Source: a virus
Taxonomy: Duplodnaviria > Heunggongvirae > Uroviricota > Caudoviricetes
IMG/VR virus record: IMGVR_UViG_2671180473_000015
Length of the DNA stretch: 35,845 nucleotides
Reading direction: 5' to 3' (one strand)
Under the pieces are notes generated by a model. That model did no database searches and was not told the origin of the DNA. It was given only the letters and a program-made list of their open reading frames with translations. Shown here one piece after another: positions 4,478 to 35,502 of this stretch; the stretch's first letter is position 1; each line of letters opens with the position of its first letter. Both the position numbers and the translations under genes were made by a program.

Positions 4478-5152
4478 TTAGGCCTTTATTATGTATCTTC
4501 TTGGTTTTCCTGAGAAAATCACTGTACCAATTATAGAGCAATTACCGTTAATCTTAATGTAAGGCTCAGGCCAGTTTGGGTTTAATGCTTTGAGATAACG
4601 CTGTGTTCCATCTTCTATCAACCGCTTGAAGGTGGTTTCGCCTGTATCGTGCATCAATGCAATAACGTCGTCACCGTGGCAGGCAGGGACTTCAGGATCA
4701 ACAAAAATCATGTCTCCCGGGCGGTACTCATCAATCATTGAATCACCAATCACCCGCAAGATATAAGTCATTTCGCCACAGGGTACAGGGCAGGGATAAG
4801 TTTCTGCTGTGCTCAAATCAACCTCAGAATAGCCAACTTCTTTCCATGCTCCGGCCTGTACCCATGATATGACAGGGACTAACGTTATTTGTTTGTTAGT
4901 GATTGAAACGTCAGGTTTTTTTGTGATGTTCGTTGTCTGGTGTTCTTGATCAAGCCATCCGACAGGCAGGTCGAAACATTTTTCGATGTGCCGTGCCATG
5001 CTGTCACCGATATTTTTAGTTGCACCATCTCCCATAAACCTGCTGGTCTGGGTTGGCTCGCGATCAATCATGGTGGCAAAGGAAGAATTCCCGCCAACAC
5101 CATCTCTCAGTTTTCTGGCGTTAGACCGCCGGATGTCATGGACTGTTTTCAT
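4478..5152 (-). CDS. CI-like prophage repressor (HTH domain plus S24 LexA-like autopeptidase domain)
   Basis: 224-aa ORF. C-terminal domain carries the GDSM Ser motif (LRVIGDSM) and a downstream Lys (TFKRL) typical of S24 self-cleaving repressors. Divergent from the cro-like gene, with operator palindromes between them. Confidence 0.85.
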   Translation of the reverse strand: MKTVHDIRRSNARKLRDGVGGNSSFATMIDREPTQTSRFMGDGATKNIGDSMARHIEKCFDLPVGWLDQEHQTTNITKKPDVSITNKQITLVPVISWVQAGAWKEVGYSEVDLSTAETYPCPVPCGEMTYILRVIGDSMIDEYRPGDMIFVDPEVPACHGDDVIALMHDTGETTFKRLIEDGTQRYLKALNPNWPEPYIKINGNCSIIGTVIFSGKPRRYIIKA

Positions 5153-5474: not shown

Positions 5475-6038
5475 ATGAGGCTAACCGTGGGTAAGCATCA
5501 CTGGAAAGTAGAAAAACAGCCTGAGTGGTACGTGAAAGCTGTCAGAAAAACTATCGCGGCGTTGCCGGGGGGTTACGCTGAAGCTGCTGAGTGGCTGGAT
5601 GTAACAGAGAACGCTTTATTCAACCGCCTTCGTGCAGATGGCGATCAGATTTTCCCGCTGGGATGGGCAATGATTTTACAGCGCGCGGCTGGCACTCACT
5701 ACATTGCGGATGCTGTCGCACAGTCTGCTGGTGGGGTGTTTGTATCGCTTCCTGAAATTGAGGAAGTAGAGAACGCCGATATAAACCAGCGCCTGCTGGA
5801 AGTCATCGAACAGATCGGGAGTTACTCAAAGCAGATTCGTTCGGCAATCGAAGATGGGGTAGTGGAGCCACACGAGCAGACAGCAATTAATGATGAGTTG
5901 TATCTGTCAATTTCGAAGCTCCAGGAGCATGCAGCACTGGTCTACAAAATCTTTTGCGCTCCAGAAAAGAGTGACGCCCGCGAGTGTGCAGCTCCGGGCG
6001 TCGTGGCGTTTTGTGTCTGTGGAGAAACTAACGCATGA
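5475..6038 (+). CDS. early regulatory protein at the cII position (CII/YdaT-like, family uncertain)
   Basis: 187-aa ORF directly downstream of cro. Stop overlaps the next start (ATGA). Family assignment is from position and weak recollection only. Confidence 0.4.
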   Translation: MRLTVGKHHWKVEKQPEWYVKAVRKTIAALPGGYAEAAEWLDVTENALFNRLRADGDQIFPLGWAMILQRAAGTHYIADAVAQSAGGVFVSLPEIEEVENADINQRLLEVIEQIGSYSKQIRSAIEDGVVEPHEQTAINDELYLSISKLQEHAALVYKIFCAPEKSDARECAAPGVVAFCVCGETNA

Positions 6039-6871
6039 ACAGTTTAACGGCAAATAACCGTTTGTCGCAACAGCTGGTGGTCAGCGTCGCTGAACACCTG
6101 TTGTTACGGCATGAATGCAGATTACCAAATCACCTGGCTGTAAGTAACCACAGAGAACTTTACCTGACTGTGGGGGGCGAGTTGTGCAGGAACTTAACCG
6201 CTGGTTTCGTGACGGAAGAGGACTTTATGTTCATGTTATTCGTTGGGAGCCAGAAACACAGCGCGTTATCTATCTTCGCAAAGACTACCCGCATGAGTGC
6301 TTTAGTCCTTTGTGGAAATTCAGGCGTGATTTTGTTGAGTGTGAAGGACCACCAGCACATTGATTCTGCCATTCCGGGACGTTACACTGTTCAGGCACCT
6401 TATAAAGCGGGTGCCGGGATTGGCGTCCTGGAATTGATCAAGGCGATATATGACGCGCCAGCGTCTTTTTTATCGTCCGCATTTGCTCACATCAAAGTTA
6501 TGGTGGGCTGGGCGGGGGCATCGAAAGATGCGCCGGTTTCCTTGATCACCGGTTACGCCAACCCCGTTCAGTTCACCACCAGCGAAATTGGCGTTTCCGG
6601 TGGTGGAAGTATTTCACCGATCAAGGAGGCTGCCATCATGGCTACTGTCCCAGCCCTCACTCGTCTGAATGATGAAGACTTACATAAACTCAGTTATGTA
6701 ACAACTGCACTACGTGCTCTGCGCAAGGTAACTCTTTCGGATCCGCAGGCACATCAGGTTCTGGTAGAAACCCTTCTTAACTTGCAAGCTGAACGTATTC
6801 GTCTGGCGGATAAGGCTAATTTTCATATTCACCGTCTCCTGAATATCAGCGGAGGGCATCGTCATGCTTAA
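6035..6871 (+). CDS. hypothetical protein (gene structure uncertain)
   Basis: 278-codon open frame with SD GGAG upstream of the ATG at 6035, translationally coupled at both ends. No family recognised. An alternative 59-aa ORF in another frame (6184..6363) starts just after a G6 homopolymer, so a frameshift or overlapping genes cannot be excluded. Confidence 0.35.
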   Translation: MNSLTANNRLSQQLVVSVAEHLLLRHECRLPNHLAVSNHRELYLTVGGELCRNLTAGFVTEEDFMFMLFVGSQKHSALSIFAKTTRMSALVLCGNSGVILLSVKDHQHIDSAIPGRYTVQAPYKAGAGIGVLELIKAIYDAPASFLSSAFAHIKVMVGWAGASKDAPVSLITGYANPVQFTTSEIGVSGGGSISPIKEAAIMATVPALTRLNDEDLHKLSYVTTALRALRKVTLSDPQAHQVLVETLLNLQAERIRLADKANFHIHRLLNISGGHRHA

Positions 6872-7915: not shown

Positions 7916-8406
7916 TCATGAGTCTTTTGAATGAAGTTCAGAAATTCATTGAAGCCCATCCGGGGTGTACTTCCGGAGACATTGCGGATGCTTTTGCAGG
8001 TTACTCACGGCAGCGCGTTCTGCAGTCAGCAAGCAAGTTACGTCAGAGTGGGCGTGTGGCTCACCGTTATGAAGGAGATACACGCAGACATTTCCCACGC
8101 CTGACTGAGAGAGCGCAGGAGCCGGAACCACAACCAGTTCGTGAAACCAGACCTGTGCGCAATTTCTATGTCGGCACTAACGATCCCCGGGTGATTTTGT
8201 GCCTGACCCGCCAGGCGGAAGAACTGGAGTCCAGGGGCTTATACCGTCGTGCTGCAACGGTGTGGATGGCGGCATTCCGTGAAAGCCACTCCCAGCCAGA
8301 ACGAAACAATTTTCTGGCGCGTCGTGAGCGGTGCTTACGGAAAAGCAGCAAGCGCGCTGCATCGGGTGAAGAGTGGTATCTGTCAGGGAATTACGTGGGG
8401 GCTTAA
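7912..8406 (+). CDS. winged-helix protein with PerC/ANR-like C-terminal region (putative regulator)
   Basis: 164-aa ORF. C-terminal AEELESRGLYRRAATVWMAAF...NFLARRERCL resembles the PerC motif (LEEAGYWRRAAECW...RRKQC) from memory. Occupies the position where lambda has P. Confidence 0.45.
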   Translation: MIMSLLNEVQKFIEAHPGCTSGDIADAFAGYSRQRVLQSASKLRQSGRVAHRYEGDTRRHFPRLTERAQEPEPQPVRETRPVRNFYVGTNDPRVILCLTRQAEELESRGLYRRAATVWMAAFRESHSQPERNNFLARRERCLRKSSKRAASGEEWYLSGNYVGA

Positions 8407-9059
8407 TGAGTAATAAATATTGCCAGGCGCTGGTGGAGCTGCGGAACAAACCAGCCCATGAACTGAAGGAAGTGGGCGATCAGTGGCGCACGCCGGATAA
8501 CATTTTCTGGGGAATTAACACCCTGTTTGGCCCGTTTGTTCTGGATCTGTTCACTGATGGTGATAACGCCAAATGTGCCGCTTATTACACTGCGGAAGAC
8601 AACGCGCTGGCGCATGACTGGTCTGAACGTCTTGCGGAGCTTAAAGGTGCTGCCTTTGGTAATCCCCCGTACAGCCGCGCCAGTCAGCATGAAGGGCAAT
8701 ACATCACCGGCATGCGTTACATCATGAAACATGCCAGTGCCATGCGTGATAAGGGCGGACGCTATGTTTTCCTGATCAAAGCTGCCACCAGCGAAGTGTG
8801 GTGGCCGGAAGATGCAGATCATATTGCTTTTATTCGCGGGCGTATTGGTTTTGAACTGCCTGCCTGGTTTATCCCGAAGGACGAGAAGCAGGTGCCGACA
8901 GGCGCTTTCTTCGCTGGTGCTATTGCTGTTTTCGACAAGACCTGGAAGGGACCGGCAATCAGCTACATCGGGCGCGATGAACTTGAGGCATGTGGTGAGG
9001 CGTTTCTGGCGCAGGTTCGCCAGCAGGCGGAAAAACTGGTCAGGGAGATGGCGGCATGA
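8406..9059 (+). CDS. phage Dam-family DNA N6-adenine methyltransferase
   Basis: 217-aa product from the ATG at 8406. NPPY catalytic motif (AFGNPPYSR) and overall similarity to phage Dam methylases (PF05869-like) as I recall them. No adjacent restriction endonuclease. Confidence 0.8.
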   Translation: MSNKYCQALVELRNKPAHELKEVGDQWRTPDNIFWGINTLFGPFVLDLFTDGDNAKCAAYYTAEDNALAHDWSERLAELKGAAFGNPPYSRASQHEGQYITGMRYIMKHASAMRDKGGRYVFLIKAATSEVWWPEDADHIAFIRGRIGFELPAWFIPKDEKQVPTGAFFAGAIAVFDKTWKGPAISYIGRDELEACGEAFLAQVRQQAEKLVREMAA

Positions 9060-9382
9060 CGACGTTAACTCAATGCCAGCAGCAGGTGCTGGATATGCTG
9101 ATTTCTTACCAGAAAGAACGTGGCTTCCCGCCAACCAATCAGGAGGTGGCAACCATGCTGGGATACCGTTCAGTGAATGCAGCGGTGGAACATCTTCGCG
9201 CACTGGAGAAAAAAGGCGTCATCACGATAAAGCGTGGCATGGCCCGGGGTATCACTCTTCATACCGCGGTGAAGGACGACGACAGCGAGGCGGTCGGGAT
9301 TATCCGCTCACTGCTTGCCGGTGAGGAAAACGCCAGGCTGCGTGCAACCCACTGGTTACATGAGAGAGGCCTGAAAGTATGA
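9056..9382 (+). CDS. LexA N-terminal DNA-binding-domain protein lacking the S24 peptidase domain
   Basis: 108-aa ORF. LTQCQQQVLDMLISYQKERGFPPTNQEVATMLGYRSVNAAVEHLRALEKKGVITI aligns closely with the E. coli LexA N-terminus ([55 protein letters not shown]). The protein ends before any Ser-Lys peptidase domain. Confidence 0.7.
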   Translation: MTTLTQCQQQVLDMLISYQKERGFPPTNQEVATMLGYRSVNAAVEHLRALEKKGVITIKRGMARGITLHTAVKDDDSEAVGIIRSLLAGEENARLRATHWLHERGLKV

Positions 9383-9768
9383 AGCTGATCCTGCCTTTCC
9401 CGCCCAGCGTGAACACGTACTGGCGACACCCCAACAAAGGGGCATTTGCTGGTAAGAGCCTGATAAGCGCGGCGGGGCGAAAATTTCAGAGCGCGGCGTG
9501 CGCAGCAATAGTTGAGCAGTTACGTCGTCTGCCAAAACCAACGTCGGCACCTGCTTCAGTGGAGATCGTGTTGTTTCCTCCGGATAACCGGATCCGCGAT
9601 CTGGACAACTATAACAAGGCGCTGTTTGACGCCCTGACCCACGCGGGGGTGTGGGAAGACGACAGCCAGGTGAAAAGAATGCTGGTGGAGTGGGGACCGG
9701 TTATCCAGAAAGGGAAGGTCGAGATCACTATCAGTAAGTATGAGAAACCGGCGGGTGCAGCCGCCTGA
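9379..9768 (+). CDS. rusA: RusA-family Holliday junction resolvase
   Basis: 129-aa ORF starting MKLILPFPPSVNTYW, the RusA signature, with conserved acidic residues (DLDNYNKALFDAL). Confidence 0.85.
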   Translation: MKLILPFPPSVNTYWRHPNKGAFAGKSLISAAGRKFQSAACAAIVEQLRRLPKPTSAPASVEIVLFPPDNRIRDLDNYNKALFDALTHAGVWEDDSQVKRMLVEWGPVIQKGKVEITISKYEKPAGAAA

Positions 9769-9787: not shown

Positions 9788-10597
9788 ATGAATAATCTGA
9801 TGGTCATTGATGGTATTGAAGTTCGTCGTGATGCTTATGGGCGTTACAGCCTGAACGATCTGCACAGGGCAGCCGGGGGAGAACAAAAAAACCGCCCGAA
9901 ATACTGGCTCTCCAATAAGCAAACCTGTGAATTGATTGAACAACTTTTCACCGAGGGTGGAATTCCGCCTCTGGAACAAAATCAACCAGTTAGCGTCATT
10001 AATGGCGGAAATAACCAGGGGACGTATGTCTGCAAAGAACTGGTGTATGCCTATGCAATGTGGATCAGCCCGTCATTCCATCTGAAGGTGATCCGTACTT
10101 TCGACATGGTAACCAGCGCACCGGAAAAATTATCCGGACAGGCTGCTGACAAGATGCAGGCTGGCGTGATCCTGCTGGACTTTATGCGCCGGGAATTAAA
10201 TCTGTCTAACTCATCAGTGCTTGGAGCCTGTCAGAAGCTTCAGGAGGCTGTTGGCTTACCGAATCTGGCACCGCGCTATGCCATTGATGCTCCTGCTGAC
10301 GCGCCTGATGGCTCAAGTCGCCCCACGCTGTCGCTGAGTGCACTGCTGAAGCAGTATGGTATCCGCCTGACGGCTAATCAGGCATATCACCAGATGGTGA
10401 AGCTGGGGATCGTTGAACAACGCGAACGATACAGCCGTACCGCGATTAACAACATCAAAAAATTCTGGTCGCTGACGGCGAAAGGCTGCATGTTCGGCAA
10501 GAACATCACCAGTCCTGCAAATCCGCGCGAGACGCAGCCGCATTTCTTCGAATCCCGATTCCCTGAGCTGTTAAAGCTGCTCGATACCGTTCATTGA
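9788..10597 (+). CDS. KilA-N domain protein (antirepressor-like)
   Basis: 269-aa product from the ATG at 9788 (SD GAGGAG upstream). N-terminal KilA-N domain (VIDGIEVRRDAYGRYSLNDLHRAAGGEQKNRPKYWLSNKQTCELIEQL...YAMWISPSFHLKVIRTF). Confidence 0.7.
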   Translation: MNNLMVIDGIEVRRDAYGRYSLNDLHRAAGGEQKNRPKYWLSNKQTCELIEQLFTEGGIPPLEQNQPVSVINGGNNQGTYVCKELVYAYAMWISPSFHLKVIRTFDMVTSAPEKLSGQAADKMQAGVILLDFMRRELNLSNSSVLGACQKLQEAVGLPNLAPRYAIDAPADAPDGSSRPTLSLSALLKQYGIRLTANQAYHQMVKLGIVEQRERYSRTAINNIKKFWSLTAKGCMFGKNITSPANPRETQPHFFESRFPELLKLLDTVH

Positions 10598-10598
10598 G

Positions 10599-11594
10599 GT
10601 GACCGTGAGAGCACTACTGACCCCTGAAATTGCCCCGCGTATGGGGATCGTATTGTTCAGGCCAGGTTCAGAGCTGATGCCCCTGTTTATGCAGGGGCGT
10701 GTTCTGCTGGAGCCTGAGCCGGAACGTTATTCATCTTTCGCCAGTGGTGCCGTTCCGGCGGCATCACAACCGCTGGCGGATGATCCTGCCGTTCGGGCCG
10801 TGTTCCGCAATGAGGCAGTGATCCGTCGTGCTGGTGGCGTGGAATGTCTTGAAAGCTGGTTACTTCGTGAAAAAGGCTGCCAGTGGCCTCATTCCGACTG
10901 GCACAGCGAGAACATGACCACAATGCGACACGCTCCGGGCGCAATCCGTCTGTGCTGGCACTGCGATAACCAGCTGCGCGATCAGTTCACGGAACGGCTG
11001 GAATCAATGGCAACGGATAACTGTGCCCGCTGGGTGTTGTCTGTTGTGCGTCGGGATCTCGGTTTTGATGATAGTCACGTTGTGACAATGCCGGAACTGT
11101 GCTGGTGGCTGATTCGTAATGACCTGGCGGATGCCTTACCGGAAAGTGCAGCCCGTAAGGCACTGAGATTACCAAAGCCTGTTGTGCCGTCTGTCACCCG
11201 GGAAAGTGACCTTGTGCCTTCGGTTCCTGCCACCAGCATCATCCAGGATAAGGCAAAAAAGGTGCTGGCGCTGAAAGTGGATCCGGAGTCGCCGGAGTCT
11301 TTTATGTTACGCCCAAAACGCCGCCGCTGGGTTAATGAAAAGTACACGCGCTGGGTTAAGACACAGCCGTGTGCATGTTGTGGAAAGCCTGCTGATGATC
11401 CCCACCACCTGATAGGCCACGGTCAGGGTGGAATGGGTACAAAAGCGCATGACCTCTTTGTGTTGCCTTTGTGCAGAAAGCATCACGACGAGCTGCATGC
11501 GGATACCGTGGCATTTGAAGAGAAGTATGGCTCCCAGCTGGAGCTGATATTTCGTTTTATCGATCGTGCGCTGGCAATTGGCGTATTGGCGTAA
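10599..11594 (+). CDS. DUF968 / YdfU-like protein with C-terminal Cys/His zinc-binding (HNH-like) motif
   Basis: 331-aa ORF with GTG start at 10599 (alternative GTG at 10605). C-terminus CACCGKPADDPHHLIGHGQGG...CRKHHDELH. Family assigned from memory. Confidence 0.55.
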   Translation: MTVRALLTPEIAPRMGIVLFRPGSELMPLFMQGRVLLEPEPERYSSFASGAVPAASQPLADDPAVRAVFRNEAVIRRAGGVECLESWLLREKGCQWPHSDWHSENMTTMRHAPGAIRLCWHCDNQLRDQFTERLESMATDNCARWVLSVVRRDLGFDDSHVVTMPELCWWLIRNDLADALPESAARKALRLPKPVVPSVTRESDLVPSVPATSIIQDKAKKVLALKVDPESPESFMLRPKRRRWVNEKYTRWVKTQPCACCGKPADDPHHLIGHGQGGMGTKAHDLFVLPLCRKHHDELHADTVAFEEKYGSQLELIFRFIDRALAIGVLA

Positions 11595-11607
11595 GTGGAG
11601 AACGAGC

Positions 11608-12360
11608 ATGAACCTTGAAGCCTTACCAAAATATTACTCCCCAAAATCTCCAAAATTGAGCGATGACGCACCGGCGACAGGCTCAGGTGGTTTAACGATT
11701 ACGGATGTGATGGCTGCGCAGGGGATGGTGCAGTCGAAAGCACCGCTTGGGTTTGCCTTATTCCTGGCAAAAGTTGGTGTTCAGGATCCTCAATTTGCGA
11801 TTGAAGGTCTGCTCAATTACGCGATGGCACTGGATAACCCGACATTGAACAAATTGAGTGAAGAAACCCGGTTACAGATCATCCCTTACCTTGTGAATTT
11901 TGCCTTTGCTGATTATTCCAGGTCTGCGGCAAGTAAGGCTCGCTGTGAGCATTGTGCTGGTACTGGATTTCATAATGTATTGCGCGAAGTGGTGAAACAC
12001 TCCAGAAGCGGGGAATCTGTTATCAAGGAAGAGTGGGTGAAGGAACTATGTCAGCATTGCCATGGTAAGGGAGAAGTCAGCACAGCGTGCAGAGGGTGTA
12101 AGGGTAAAGGTATTGTCCTGGATGAAAAAAGAACCCGGCTTCATGGTGTGCCTGTTTATAAGATTTGTGGGCGTTGCAATGGCAACCGGTTTAGCCGTTT
12201 ACCAACCACACTGGCGCGGCATCATGTCCAGAAACTGGTACCGGACCTGACGGATTATCAGTGGTACAAAGGATATGCAGACGTTATTAATAAACTGGTT
12301 ACAAAGTGCTGGCAGGAAGAAGCGTATGCTGAATCGCAATTGAGAAAAGTGACAAGATAG
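11608..12360 (+). CDS. Q: late-gene antitermination protein Q
   Basis: 250-aa product from the ATG at 11608 (SD GGAG 7 nt upstream). Paired CxxC zinc-finger motifs (CEHCAGTGF, CQHCHGKGE, CRGCKGKG, CGRCNGNRF) typical of Q antiterminators. Immediately upstream of a promoter-plus-terminator unit. Confidence 0.8.
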   Translation: MNLEALPKYYSPKSPKLSDDAPATGSGGLTITDVMAAQGMVQSKAPLGFALFLAKVGVQDPQFAIEGLLNYAMALDNPTLNKLSEETRLQIIPYLVNFAFADYSRSAASKARCEHCAGTGFHNVLREVVKHSRSGESVIKEEWVKELCQHCHGKGEVSTACRGCKGKGIVLDEKRTRLHGVPVYKICGRCNGNRFSRLPTTLARHHVQKLVPDLTDYQWYKGYADVINKLVTKCWQEEAYAESQLRKVTR

Positions 12361-13492: not shown

Positions 13493-13642
13493 TGGCGGTT
13501 TCCTGCTGTGAAAATGGGCGGCTGGTGGGTGTTGGTAGCACCTGCCAGCCATTCGCTCATGCTTACTGGTCACAAGCGAACCACGGCCCACTGCTTTAGC
13601 GCAAAAGCAGAGTGAGCCTACCAGAGTTACGCTTACTGATCC

Positions 13643-14695
13643 ATGAAAAATACTGTAAAAATAAACAGTGTTGATTTAATCAACGCTGATTGCCTGCATT
13701 TTATTCAGTCCCTGCCTGATGATTCCATTGACCTGATTGTTACCGATCCGCCTTACTTCAAGGTGAAACCCAACGGTTGGGACAATCAGTGGAAAGGGGA
13801 CGAAGATTACCTTAAGTGGCTGGACCACTGTCTGGCCCAGTTCTGGCGGGTGTTGAAACCTGCCGGAAGCCTTTACCTGTTCTGTGGGCATCGCCTGGCA
13901 TCTGATATTGAGATCATGATGCGTGAACGTTTCAACGTGCTTAACCATATCATCTGGGCGAAGCCGTCCGGACGTTGGAATGGGTGTAATAAAGAAAGTC
14001 TGCGCGCATATTTTCCTGCCACAGAGCGCGTTCTGTTTGCTGAACATTACCAGGGGCCATATCGCGGCAAAAGTGACGGCTATGCGGCAAAAGAAAGGGA
14101 ACTCAAACAGCACATAATGGCACCGCTGATATCGTATTTCAGGGATGCTCGTGCCGAACTGGGTATAACGGCAAAACAAATTGCCGAAGCCACAGGTAAG
14201 AAAAATATGGTTTCCCACTGGTTTGGTGCCAGTCAGTGGCAGTTGCCGAATGAGGCTGACTATCGGAAGTTACAGGCACTGTTTTCCCGTATAGCGGCAG
14301 AGAAGTTTCAGGAACAACAACTGGAACAACCACACCACCAGCTGGTGGCATCTTATGATTCACTGAATCGTAAATATTCTGAATTGCTGGATGAGTTTAA
14401 ATCTCTCCGGCGCTATTTCTCCGTATCAGTCTCCGTGCCTTATACCGATGTCTGGATGCATAAACCCGTTCAGTTCTACCCGGGGAAACATCCGTGTGAG
14501 AAACCGGCGGATATGCTCAGGCAAATAATCAATGCCAGTAGTCGACCAGGTGATCTGGTTGCTGATTTTTTTATGGGATCCGGTTCCACAATAAAAGCAG
14601 CAATGGCGCTGGGGCGTCGGGCCTTAGGTGTTGAGCTTGAGTCAGAGCGGTTTAATCAGACAGTGAAAGAGATAAACGAGCTGGTGGGGAAATAA
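13643..14695 (+). CDS. DNA methyltransferase, N4/N6 beta-class (DPPY motif before FxGxG motif)
   Basis: 350-aa ORF. Catalytic motif IVTDPPYF near the N-terminus and SAM-binding DFFMGSGST near the C-terminus (PF01555-type order). No cognate endonuclease in the window. Confidence 0.85.
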
Positions 14696-14900: not shown

Positions 14901-15140
14901 NNNNNNNNNNNNNNNNNNNNNNNNNNNNNNNNNNNNNNNNNNNNNNNNNNNNNNNNNNNNNNNNNNNNNNNNNNNNNNNNNNNNNNNNNNNNNNNNNNNN
15001 NNNNNNNNNNNNNNNNNNNNNNNNNNNNNNNNNNNNNNNNNNNNNNNNNNNNNNNNNNNNNNNNNNNNNNNNNNNNNNNNNNNNNNNNNNNNNNNNNNNN
15101 NNNNNNNNNNNNNNNNNNNNNNNNNNNNNNNNNNNNNNNN
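14901..15140. other. N-run (240 nt) - assembly gap or masked sequence
   Basis: Continuous n characters; removes the holin 3' end and the holin-endolysin junction. Confidence 0.95.
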
Positions 15141-31294: not shown

Positions 31295-31896
31295 AAACGG
31301 GGTCCGAAGCCATCCGGGCGCTGGCCATGCAGATCCCGGCGTTTCGTCAGAAACTGAATGAGGGCTGGTATCAGGTGCGCATTGCCGGGCGTGATGCAGG
31401 CGAAAATGAATTATCTGCCCGTCTTAATGAGCCGCTGGCAAATGGTGCCGTGATCCACATCGTGCCGCGTCTGGCGGGAGCTAAAAGTGGCGGTGTGTTT
31501 CAGGTGGTGCTTGGGGCGGCGCTGATTGCGGTGGCATGGTGGAACCCTGTGGGCTGGCTGGGGNNNNNNNNNNNNNNNNNNNNNNNNNNNNNNNNNNNNN
31601 NNNNNNNNNNNNNNNNNNNNNNNNNNNNNNNNNNNNNNNNNNNNNNNNNNNNNNNNNNNNNNNNNNNNNNNNNNNNNNNNNNNNNNNNNNNNNNNNNNNN
31701 NNNNNNNNNNNNNNNNNNNNNNNNNNNNNNNNNNNNNNNNNNNNNNNNNNNNNNNNNNNNNNNNNNNNNNNNNNNNNNNNNNNNNNNNNNNNNNNNNNNN
31801 NNNNNNNNNNNNNNNNNNNNNNNNNNNNNNNNNNNNNNNNNNNTCAGCACGGCAGACGAAGGGGATGGTGGTCAGGTTGTGGTGATTGGTCGCTGA
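31192..31896 (+). CDS. I: tail assembly protein I (interrupted by an N-run)
   Basis: Starts MAATHTLPLASPGMARICLYGDLQRFGRRIDLRV as in lambda I. Overlaps the 3' end of K in another frame, as in lambda. The middle is lost in the N-run 31564-31843. Ends ...STADEGDGGQVVVIGR. Confidence 0.75.
   Translation: MAATHTLPLASPGMARICLYGDLQRFGRRIDLRVKTGSEAIRALAMQIPAFRQKLNEGWYQVRIAGRDAGENELSARLNEPLANGAVIHIVPRLAGAKSGGVFQVVLGAALIAVAWWNPVGWLGXXXXXXXXXXXXXXXXXXXXXXXXXXXXXXXXXXXXXXXXXXXXXXXXXXXXXXXXXXXXXXXXXXXXXXXXXXXXXXXXXXXXXXXXXXXXXXSTADEGDGGQVVVIGR
31564..31843. other. N-run (280 nt) - assembly gap or masked sequence
   Basis: Continuous n characters inside gene I. Confidence 0.95.

Positions 31897-31956: not shown

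Positions 31957-35502
<3,546 letters not shown>

Follow-up and report, generated by a model that had tools for sequence, protein, structure and literature searches.

Background

The stretch of DNA analysed here, which is IMG/VR virus record IMGVR_UViG_2671180473_000015 and is referred to below, at its full length of 35,845 nucleotides (nt), as the window, is a lambdoid Escherichia coli prophage, and it raises the question of what use a phage makes of the DNA-binding head of LexA when that head is encoded without the autoprotease domain. The protein in question, designated mini-LexA or sLexA, has 108 amino acids, and its gene lies in the early-right (nin-like) operon of the prophage, translationally coupled between the genes for the Dam methyltransferase and the Holliday-junction resolvase RusA. 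A preliminary description of the sequence had offered three possible roles for it: an uncleavable repressor, a dominant-negative partner of host LexA, or a dedicated regulator of phage genes such as the downstream KilA-N gene. The reading favoured in the present work is a specific form of the first of these, in which sLexA would act as a surrogate LexA, insensitive to RecA, and would occupy SOS boxes again once the prophage has been induced; we put the prospects of this reading at about even.

Part of the ground is already known. The gene is widespread and annotated, a point which the preliminary description overlooked, and truncated phage LexA homologues are a recognized kind of protein. No experimental study of this enterobacterial protein was found in full-text searches of the literature, which yielded only work on gp6 of the phage GIL01 and general work on LexA.

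Results and discussion

A LexA-type DNA-binding head without the autoprotease

The assignment made in the preliminary description, that sLexA corresponds to the N-terminal domain of LexA and ends before the S24 peptidase domain, is confirmed by profile searches. Residues 1-65 cover the whole of the Pfam LexA_DNA_bind profile (PF01726, positions 1-65 of 65; E=2.1e-19; 69.5 bits with a cutoff of 23.7), and the lexA equivalog model TIGR00498 is matched only over its positions 1-91 of 203, at 71.3 bits, under the cutoff of 110.95; since the match is confined to the first 91 positions, the S24 half is absent. Pfam likewise gives no Peptidase_S24 match in sLexA, the protein contains no equivalents of Ser119 or Lys156, and it ends at residue 108. 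RecA-stimulated self-cleavage of sLexA is therefore not possible, as had been proposed.

The structural comparisons agree with the profile searches. A phmmer search of the PDB returns E. coli LexA (1lea, 3jso and 1jhh) at E of about 1e-15. The AlphaFold2 (AF2) model of sLexA has a mean predicted local distance difference test (pLDDT) score of 84.7, and Foldseek places it on the LexA-DNA complex 3jso with a root-mean-square deviation of 1.0 A over 68 residues, at 50% identity. In the model the head consists of helices at residues 6-22, 28-35 and 40-52 and strands at residues 56-58 and 66-68.

The residues that would read the DNA are for the most part those of LexA. Five LexA residues are listed as touching bases, namely S39, N41, A42, E44 and E45 (PMC3091678, a second-hand list), and sLexA retains four of them, the exception being the replacement of E44 by valine; the RGI of the LexA wing is also kept. 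All of 45 family members have S39, R64 and G65, and N41 is found in at least 90% of them; conservation across the family is at its strongest in the DNA-reading residues and in the wing. On the strength of these contacts, together with the box in the window and the enrichment of boxes in related loci described below, sLexA is predicted to bind CTGT-N8-ACAG boxes.

A head of this kind can be expected to repress. The N-terminal domain of LexA that is freed by autocleavage keeps its ability to bind SOS boxes and to repress, and its removal by ClpXP is needed to complete SOS induction (PMC10584840). Because the free LexA domain represses, and because sLexA combines a stable head with a hairpin of its own, a repressor that is proof against removal by RecA would be expected. 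Of the roles named in the preliminary description, the uncleavable repressor is thus the one that the evidence favours.

A family-specific hairpin in place of the S24 domain

The preliminary description overlooked a conserved C-terminal hairpin, and sLexA is not simply LexA cut short. An acidic hinge, which aligns with the LexA hinge QEEEEG, leads from the head to two helices that AF2 predicts with high confidence and that carry the motif IIRALLxGExxARxRAxxWLxxxG. Within this motif A97 and L101 are invariant, and the hairpin is kept in relatives at 40-60% identity; it is the most family-specific and the best conserved part of the protein outside the head. The C-terminal tail has no significant Pfam or PDB match.

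LexA dimerises via its C-terminal domain, and the hairpin is proposed to be a dimerisation or partner-binding module that would replace the S24 domain of LexA. Weak Foldseek matches are consistent with the first of these roles, in that the next structural neighbours of the model are repressors in which a winged helix-turn-helix is combined with a helical C-terminal module for dimerisation (BlaI-, MntR- and GntR-like). The protein terminates in LKV, which differs from the VAA end of the cleaved LexA fragment; the latter, when exposed on the fragment, is said, in work by Neher et al. in 2003, to be a degron recognized by ClpX.

Cleavage of the tail in trans was considered as well. The HMMER alignment sets A88-G89 of sLexA opposite the scissile bond A84-G85 of LexA, but the Ala-Gly pair is not conserved, Citrobacter having AN and other relatives different residues, and a helix is predicted at this point, so that cleavage there was rejected.

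A conserved tail with no known homologue could alternatively mean that sLexA is primarily a protein-protein modulator, whose hairpin docks on the repressor of the prophage, on host LexA or RecA, on RusA or on the protein of the KilA-N or Rha/ANT type, and for which DNA binding would be secondary or serve only for targeting; the dominant-negative role suggested in the preliminary description belongs under this heading. Besides the family-specific character of the hairpin, this alternative can draw on the tight coupling to rusA, which abuts the sLexA gene in 79 of the 80 IMG/VR loci carrying sLexA that served as the context sample (1.33 Mb), and on the existence of small phage proteins that bind LexA, such as GIL01 gp7 (mentioned in PMC6182141). 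The loci in Klebsiella nevertheless do without rusA, and the still greater conservation of the wing and of the residues that read the DNA speaks for DNA binding as the function under selection. The dimer interface of LexA, moreover, lies in the C-terminal domain which sLexA does not have, so that canonical heterodimers are impossible and a dominant-negative partnership with host LexA is unlikely. A modulator acting mainly through protein contacts is accordingly judged improbable.

Distribution of the family and selection on the gene

sLexA matches PHROG 362 ("transcriptional repressor") from end to end, with residues 1-108 aligned to profile positions 1-106 of 106 at E=4e-59. Of 5426 complete E. 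coli genomes, 2233 carry the gene at an identity of 90% or more, in up to 4 copies, and it occurs in 50-61 phage records, including SfV (orf42), SfII, SfIV, mEp460, cdtI and Stx2a/2c/2k phages; in the 2233 genomes and in 50 phage records its identity is given as 95-100%. Its labels in the databases vary among "LexA family protein", "LexA DNA binding domain protein" and, wrongly, "SOS-response repressor and protease LexA"; in E. coli A14 (NZ_CP028760), which matches the window exactly over the gene, it is annotated "LexA repressor" (WP_001610361.1). More distant relatives, at 40-60% identity, are spread over the Enterobacterales and are found in Salmonella, Citrobacter, Cronobacter, Klebsiella, Enterobacter, Atlantibacter and Hafnia, and all of them have 105-135 amino acids and the same architecture.

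Among 50 alleles from related loci, the nonsynonymous divergence (dN) is 0.007 and the synonymous divergence (dS) is 0.097, a dN/dS ratio of about 0.07, and the gene is thus under purifying selection. Because the tail is kept at 40-60% identity and the dN/dS ratio is this low, sLexA is a stable and selected architecture, consisting of a LexA head and a private helical hairpin, and not a recent truncation.

These data bear directly on the possibility that sLexA is what is left of a LexA or CI-type gene which has lost its 3' half, and that it is inert and survives only as a hitch-hiker in the nin region. The HMMER alignment, which continues through the hinge and brings A88-G89 opposite A84-G85, could give the look of a relic, and many frameshifted copies of the gene exist in databases. 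A relic would not readily account, however, for the strength of purifying selection, for the conservation of length and tail across at least seven genera, for the variability of the Ala-Gly pair itself, or for a proper Shine-Dalgarno sequence and translational coupling. The conservation data in effect refute this explanation, which we regard as barely credible.

SOS boxes in the window and in related loci

The preliminary description had found no canonical CTGT-N8-ACAG SOS box in the window. The motif search run here contradicts this: there are two exact matches, one in the region 13651-13670 and the other at 6138-6153. Scored with a position weight matrix built from an uncurated set of 24 E. 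coli LexA sites, for which a strong box was defined as one of at least 20 bits, the first of these (TACTGTAAAAATAAACAGTG) reaches 22.5 bits, which falls in the upper half of the sites used to train the matrix; the maximum over 100 shuffles was 15.9 bits. The second scores 7.1 bits, with poor flanks and spacer, and was treated as a chance occurrence.

The strong box falls within the reading frame of a DNA methyltransferase gene in the late region. The homologous genes, 77-88% identical, of phages from Citrobacter, Klebsiella, Morganella and Providencia also have the pattern CTGT-N8-(A/C)CAG. The box is a candidate cis target of both host LexA and sLexA.

Strong boxes are concentrated in prophages of the sLexA type. 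The control was a set of 80 lambdoid loci (1.25 Mb) from the same collection, anchored on lambda NinG and none with sLexA. There are 58 boxes of at least 20 bits in 45 of the 80 sLexA loci, as compared with 1 box in 1 of the 80 control loci, a contrast which is not phylogenetically independent, in which the boxes amount to about 4-5 site families, and which is to be read as an association between module types and not as 80 independent events. The site families include the box in the methyltransferase gene (26 loci, one variant included), a palindrome in the linker of a CI-like repressor (27 loci) and a box in the spacer between rusA and an allelic KilA-N gene (4 loci).

The second of these families is an observation in its own right. 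A perfect SOS palindrome (TACTGTTTTTA[C/T]ATACAGTA or TACTGTTTATAAATACAGTA) lies within the gene of a CI-like repressor with a helix-turn-helix (HTH) domain and an S24 domain, in the interdomain linker, for example at 5546-5565 of locus L004, 5334-5353 of L042 and 836-855 of L100; 27 of the 80 sLexA loci have such a box in this immunity-repressor gene, as does a divergent lineage.

Another observation concerns the surroundings of the strong box in the window. The late-region methyltransferase gene that carries it is placed between Q and the lysis genes, and upstream of it, at 13510-13625, is a noncoding block of about 115 nt with an invariant AAATGGGCGGCTGGTGGGTGTT...CCAGCCAT hairpin. The block is conserved in phages of E. 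coli, Citrobacter, Klebsiella, Morganella and Providencia; RNAalifold gives hairpins with a few compensatory pairs, and the element matches no Rfam family. The prophage rRNA methyltransferase described in PMC10810198 is a different, MT-A70 gene and is not relevant here.

Operon structure and the immunity repressor

The features of the window that bear on sLexA are collected in Table 1. The rightward order of genes is replication initiator (HTH_36), PerC-like protein, Dam, sLexA, RusA, KilA-N protein, DUF968/HNH protein and Q antiterminator, and the start codon of sLexA overlaps the stop codon of dam just as its stop codon overlaps the start codon of rusA, with ATGA at both junctions. Simple promoter scans revealed no sigma-70-like promoter or terminator on the + strand from the replication genes to kilA-N, and no sigma-70-like promoter directly upstream of sLexA. 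Since no promoter or terminator was found and the gene overlaps both of its neighbours, sLexA is probably co-transcribed with the early-right genes. PADLOC makes no defence-system assignment for sLexA, RusA, the KilA-N protein or DUF968.

Table 1. Features of the window referred to in the text, with amino acid (aa) numbering for parts of sLexA
Feature	Position	Strand	Description and basis
YmfK-like immunity repressor	4478..5152	-	HTH (HTH_3-type head) and S24 peptidase; "ymfK, LexA family protein" in locus L001; open reading frame (ORF) list
Phage N6-adenine methyltransferase Dam	8406..9059	+	Upstream of sLexA; PF05869, E=1e-45; annotation in L001
Shine-Dalgarno sequence AGGGAG	9042..9047	+	8 nt before the sLexA ATG, within the 3' end of dam; read from the sequence
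Mini-LexA (sLexA) coding sequence	9056..9382	+	108 aa, ATG start, TGA stop; ORF list
Winged helix-turn-helix domain, aa 1-68	9056..9259	+	AF2, Foldseek, conservation
Recognition helix, aa 40-52	9173-9211	+	
Wing, aa 56-68		+	Beta; AF2
Acidic hinge, aa 69-74	9260..9277	+	HTAVKD, then DD; predicted disordered, pLDDT <50 at 71-74
Two-helix hairpin, aa 75-88 and 93-103	9278..9364	+	Family-specific; pLDDT about 90
RusA Holliday-junction resolvase	9379..9768	+	Directly downstream of sLexA; PF05866
KilA-N domain protein	9788..10597	+	"Antirepressor" of the preliminary description; PF04383; PHROG 129 "transcriptional regulator"
Q antiterminator	11566-12360		Late activator; annotation
Strong SOS (LexA) box TACTGTAAAAATAAACAGTG	13651..13670		Codons 3-9 of the late-region DNA methyltransferase gene (13643-14695); 22.5 bits

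The immunity repressor of the prophage is the YmfK-like protein and not sLexA. The former adjoins ymfT/cro, and the gene for sLexA is found 4 kb further downstream, within the rightward operon; sLexA is therefore not a repressor that maintains lysogeny from a gene transcribed divergently from cro in the immunity region. Given an S24 immunity repressor, sLexA can be expected to appear once RecA-dependent induction has taken place. The two have in common the label "LexA family protein", a repressor-type DNA-binding domain and their residence in one prophage, but YmfK, a repressor of the CI/LexA family, has an HTH_3-type head and an S24 domain, in contrast to the LexA-type head, the missing S24 domain and the lytic operon of sLexA.

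Over long stretches the window is 97-98% identical to PhiR55_1, mEp460 and Stx2c phages. Within the context sample Dam abuts sLexA in 52 of the 80 loci, a KilA-N protein follows in 78 and DUF968 in 75. The order methyltransferase, sLexA, RusA, KilA-N or Rha/ANT protein, DUF968 and Q recurs in Cronobacter (48% identity), in Salmonella (53-60%) and in the unassigned contig L100. The gene directly upstream was a DNA methyltransferase in every case (the window, L090, L097 and L100), though three Pfam families fill this position across the lineages: PF05869 Dam, PF02086 D12-class and PF00145 C5.

A second arrangement is found in Klebsiella and Enterobacter, whose homologues have 130-135 amino acids with an N-terminal extension and are encoded in a rightward unit at the head of which stands a canonical SOS box (L082, 4385-5393; L095, 5560-6408). 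In the Klebsiella unit the box TACTGTTTATTTATACAGTA is located 40 nt before dinI-orfX-sLexA, and in the Enterobacter unit the box ACCTGTACATTCATACAGTA precedes orfX-sLexA; the orfX proteins of the two (PHROG 1813) are 54% identical, and rusA, which the Klebsiella loci do not have, is retained in the Enterobacter loci.

Control of the downstream KilA-N gene by sLexA, another suggestion of the preliminary description, finds no support in the window, where the gap between rusA and kilA-N is 19 nt and holds no box. In 4 of the 80 loci (L043, L056, L060 and L021) an allelic gene takes this place and is preceded by an SOS box, and the C-terminal half of its product matches the KilA-N protein of the window, so that it looks like a LexA-controlled version of the window gene. 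In L043 the box is TACTGTATTTATGAACAGTG, at 10765-10784, in a spacer of 150 nt from rusA to the allelic gene, and the other three loci are alike in this.

SOS boxes or a private operator

The principal alternative to a surrogate LexA is that sLexA is a dedicated phage transcription factor with a non-SOS operator of its own, through which it would switch phage promoters in the lytic programme. There is a precedent for this in GIL01 gp6, which is in essence a LexA DNA-binding domain, has a distinct palindrome as its target and is an activator of the late promoter P3 (PMC6182141), and the constant slot of sLexA between the methyltransferase and Q suggests a role internal to the phage.

Several points which this alternative shares, or which stand by themselves, weigh against the surrogate reading. 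The contact positions 44 and 45 vary, position 44 being acidic in no member of the family and position 45 being L or T in some members of the Klebsiella type, and the specificity of sLexA may have shifted because of this variation. Strong SOS boxes are absent from the flanks examined in 35 of the 80 E. coli loci and in the Cronobacter and Salmonella loci. Host LexA alone, furthermore, explains every phage-borne SOS box equally well. Next to the 13651 box, which is inside a coding region, simple promoter scans detected no sigma-70-like promoter. The uncurated training set of the matrix and the relatedness of the 80 loci limit what the box counts show, and dimerisation through the tail is something that we infer.

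Other evidence is difficult to reconcile with a private operator. Scans for CTGT/ACAG half-sites with spacers of 2-14 in the divergent loci returned nothing recurrent and hence no conserved alternative palindrome. The head retains four of the five LexA contacts and has 50% identity with E. coli LexA, the phage already possesses a dedicated activator of late transcription, Q, canonical boxes stand at the head of the units in Klebsiella and Enterobacter, and SOS boxes are concentrated in the sLexA-type prophages. A private operator is regarded as fairly unlikely. If sLexA did have one, it would be the second independent case, after GIL01 gp6, of a LexA head that has become a private phage regulator.

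How a surrogate LexA would operate

If sLexA is a surrogate LexA, the course of events after DNA damage might be as follows. The S24 repressor of the prophage would be inactivated, and only then would sLexA be made from the early-right operon, at a time when host LexA has already been cleaved. Production after damage can be expected in both genomic arrangements, because the gene belongs either to the early-right operon, as in E. coli, or to a unit headed by an SOS box, as in Klebsiella and Enterobacter. A dimer of sLexA, joined through the hairpin, through contacts between the two heads on the DNA, or through both, would bind CTGT-N8-ACAG operators, and activated RecA would be unable to remove it, there being neither a cleavage site nor a catalytic domain. 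The protein could then re-occupy SOS boxes on the phage (that at 13651-13670 in the window) and on the chromosome, and genes under LexA control would be closed down during lytic growth, which would make sLexA a RecA-proof surrogate LexA, or a brake on the SOS response. One speculative pay-off concerns the neighbouring gene: rusA may be carried along since re-repression would shut the SOS-controlled ruvAB.

A broader version of the proposal is offered more tentatively, with the balance somewhat against it. It holds that the roughly 40% of E. coli genomes which carry the gene possess a RecA-proof LexA surrogate that after induction re-closes the SOS regulon together with any genes under LexA control in the phage itself or in rival mobile elements, and that RusA replaces the re-repressed RuvAB.

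If sLexA binds SOS boxes in a manner proof against RecA, induced prophages would reset the SOS response in a large fraction of strains of E. coli, Shigella, Salmonella, Klebsiella and Cronobacter. This response governs mutagenesis, persistence, the induction of Shiga-toxin phages and the induction of other mobile elements wired to LexA, all of which would be affected, with possible effects on Stx output, mutagenesis and competition between prophages. Such a surrogate would constitute a previously unrecognized phage takeover of the host DNA-damage circuit at the level of the operator. The protein is small, ubiquitous and easily tested, and the function of a widely annotated "LexA family protein" is thus directly open to experiment.

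Relation to known systems

The differences between sLexA and the systems it resembles help to define what is particular to the family. With the N-terminal domain of E. coli LexA (residues 1-84, freed by autocleavage) sLexA has in common the winged-helix fold and the acidic hinge. It differs from LexA in having no S24 domain, no Ser/Lys dyad, no conserved Ala-Gly cleavage site and no LexA-type dimer interface in a C-terminal domain, and in possessing a hairpin of its own and the E44V replacement, besides being encoded by a phage and placed in its early operon. It has the head of LexA proper but neither the S24 domain nor the C-terminal mode of dimerisation, while its full-length match to PHROG 362, hairpin included, and its nin-like slot beside rusA are those of the "LexA family protein" of that group.

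The closest characterized analogue is gp6 of GIL01, a tectivirus of Bacillus thuringiensis, which is a truncated LexA homologue made early after DNA damage (PMC6182141). According to its description in that work, gp6 resembles sLexA in being encoded by a phage, in consisting mainly of a LexA DNA-binding domain and in having no autoprotease. For its own part, gp6 recognizes a palindrome of its own at P3, activates late transcription and comes from a Gram-positive host in which GIL01 is a linear plasmid-prophage; the sLexA family differs from gp6 as described in its extra hairpin, in retaining most of the reading head of E. coli LexA and in its location in a lambdoid nin region with Q.

Two further systems approach the predicted activity from other directions. 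Ind- mutants of LexA (G85D, S119A) are RecA-proof binders of SOS boxes, which is the outcome predicted for sLexA, but they are full-length dimers with a normal C-terminal domain (1jhf and 1jhh are among the structural matches), so that in sLexA the domain has been replaced and not mutated. DinI is an SOS damper of mobile elements, as is proposed for sLexA, and in Klebsiella prophages dinI heads the SOS-box unit that contains the sLexA homologue; DinI acts on RecA filaments, whereas sLexA would act at operators.

The representative library also contained many unrelated proteins of 140-350 amino acids with two tandem LexA DNA-binding domains and no S24 domain (P0132, P0134, P0150 and others). 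These tandem-domain proteins are another route to a LexA-type "dimer" without the protease domain.

Other features of the window

Five masked runs (14901-15140, 30118, 31564-31843, 32455-32681 and 34451-34666) account for 964 N in the window, and none of them is near sLexA. Two RNA families exceed the Rfam gathering score, isrK at 6395-6471 (+, 64 bits) and C4 antisense RNA at 6496-6583 (+, 82 bits), and together they form an antisense module like that of P1 immI, within or upstream of the "ash family" ORF at 6326-6871.

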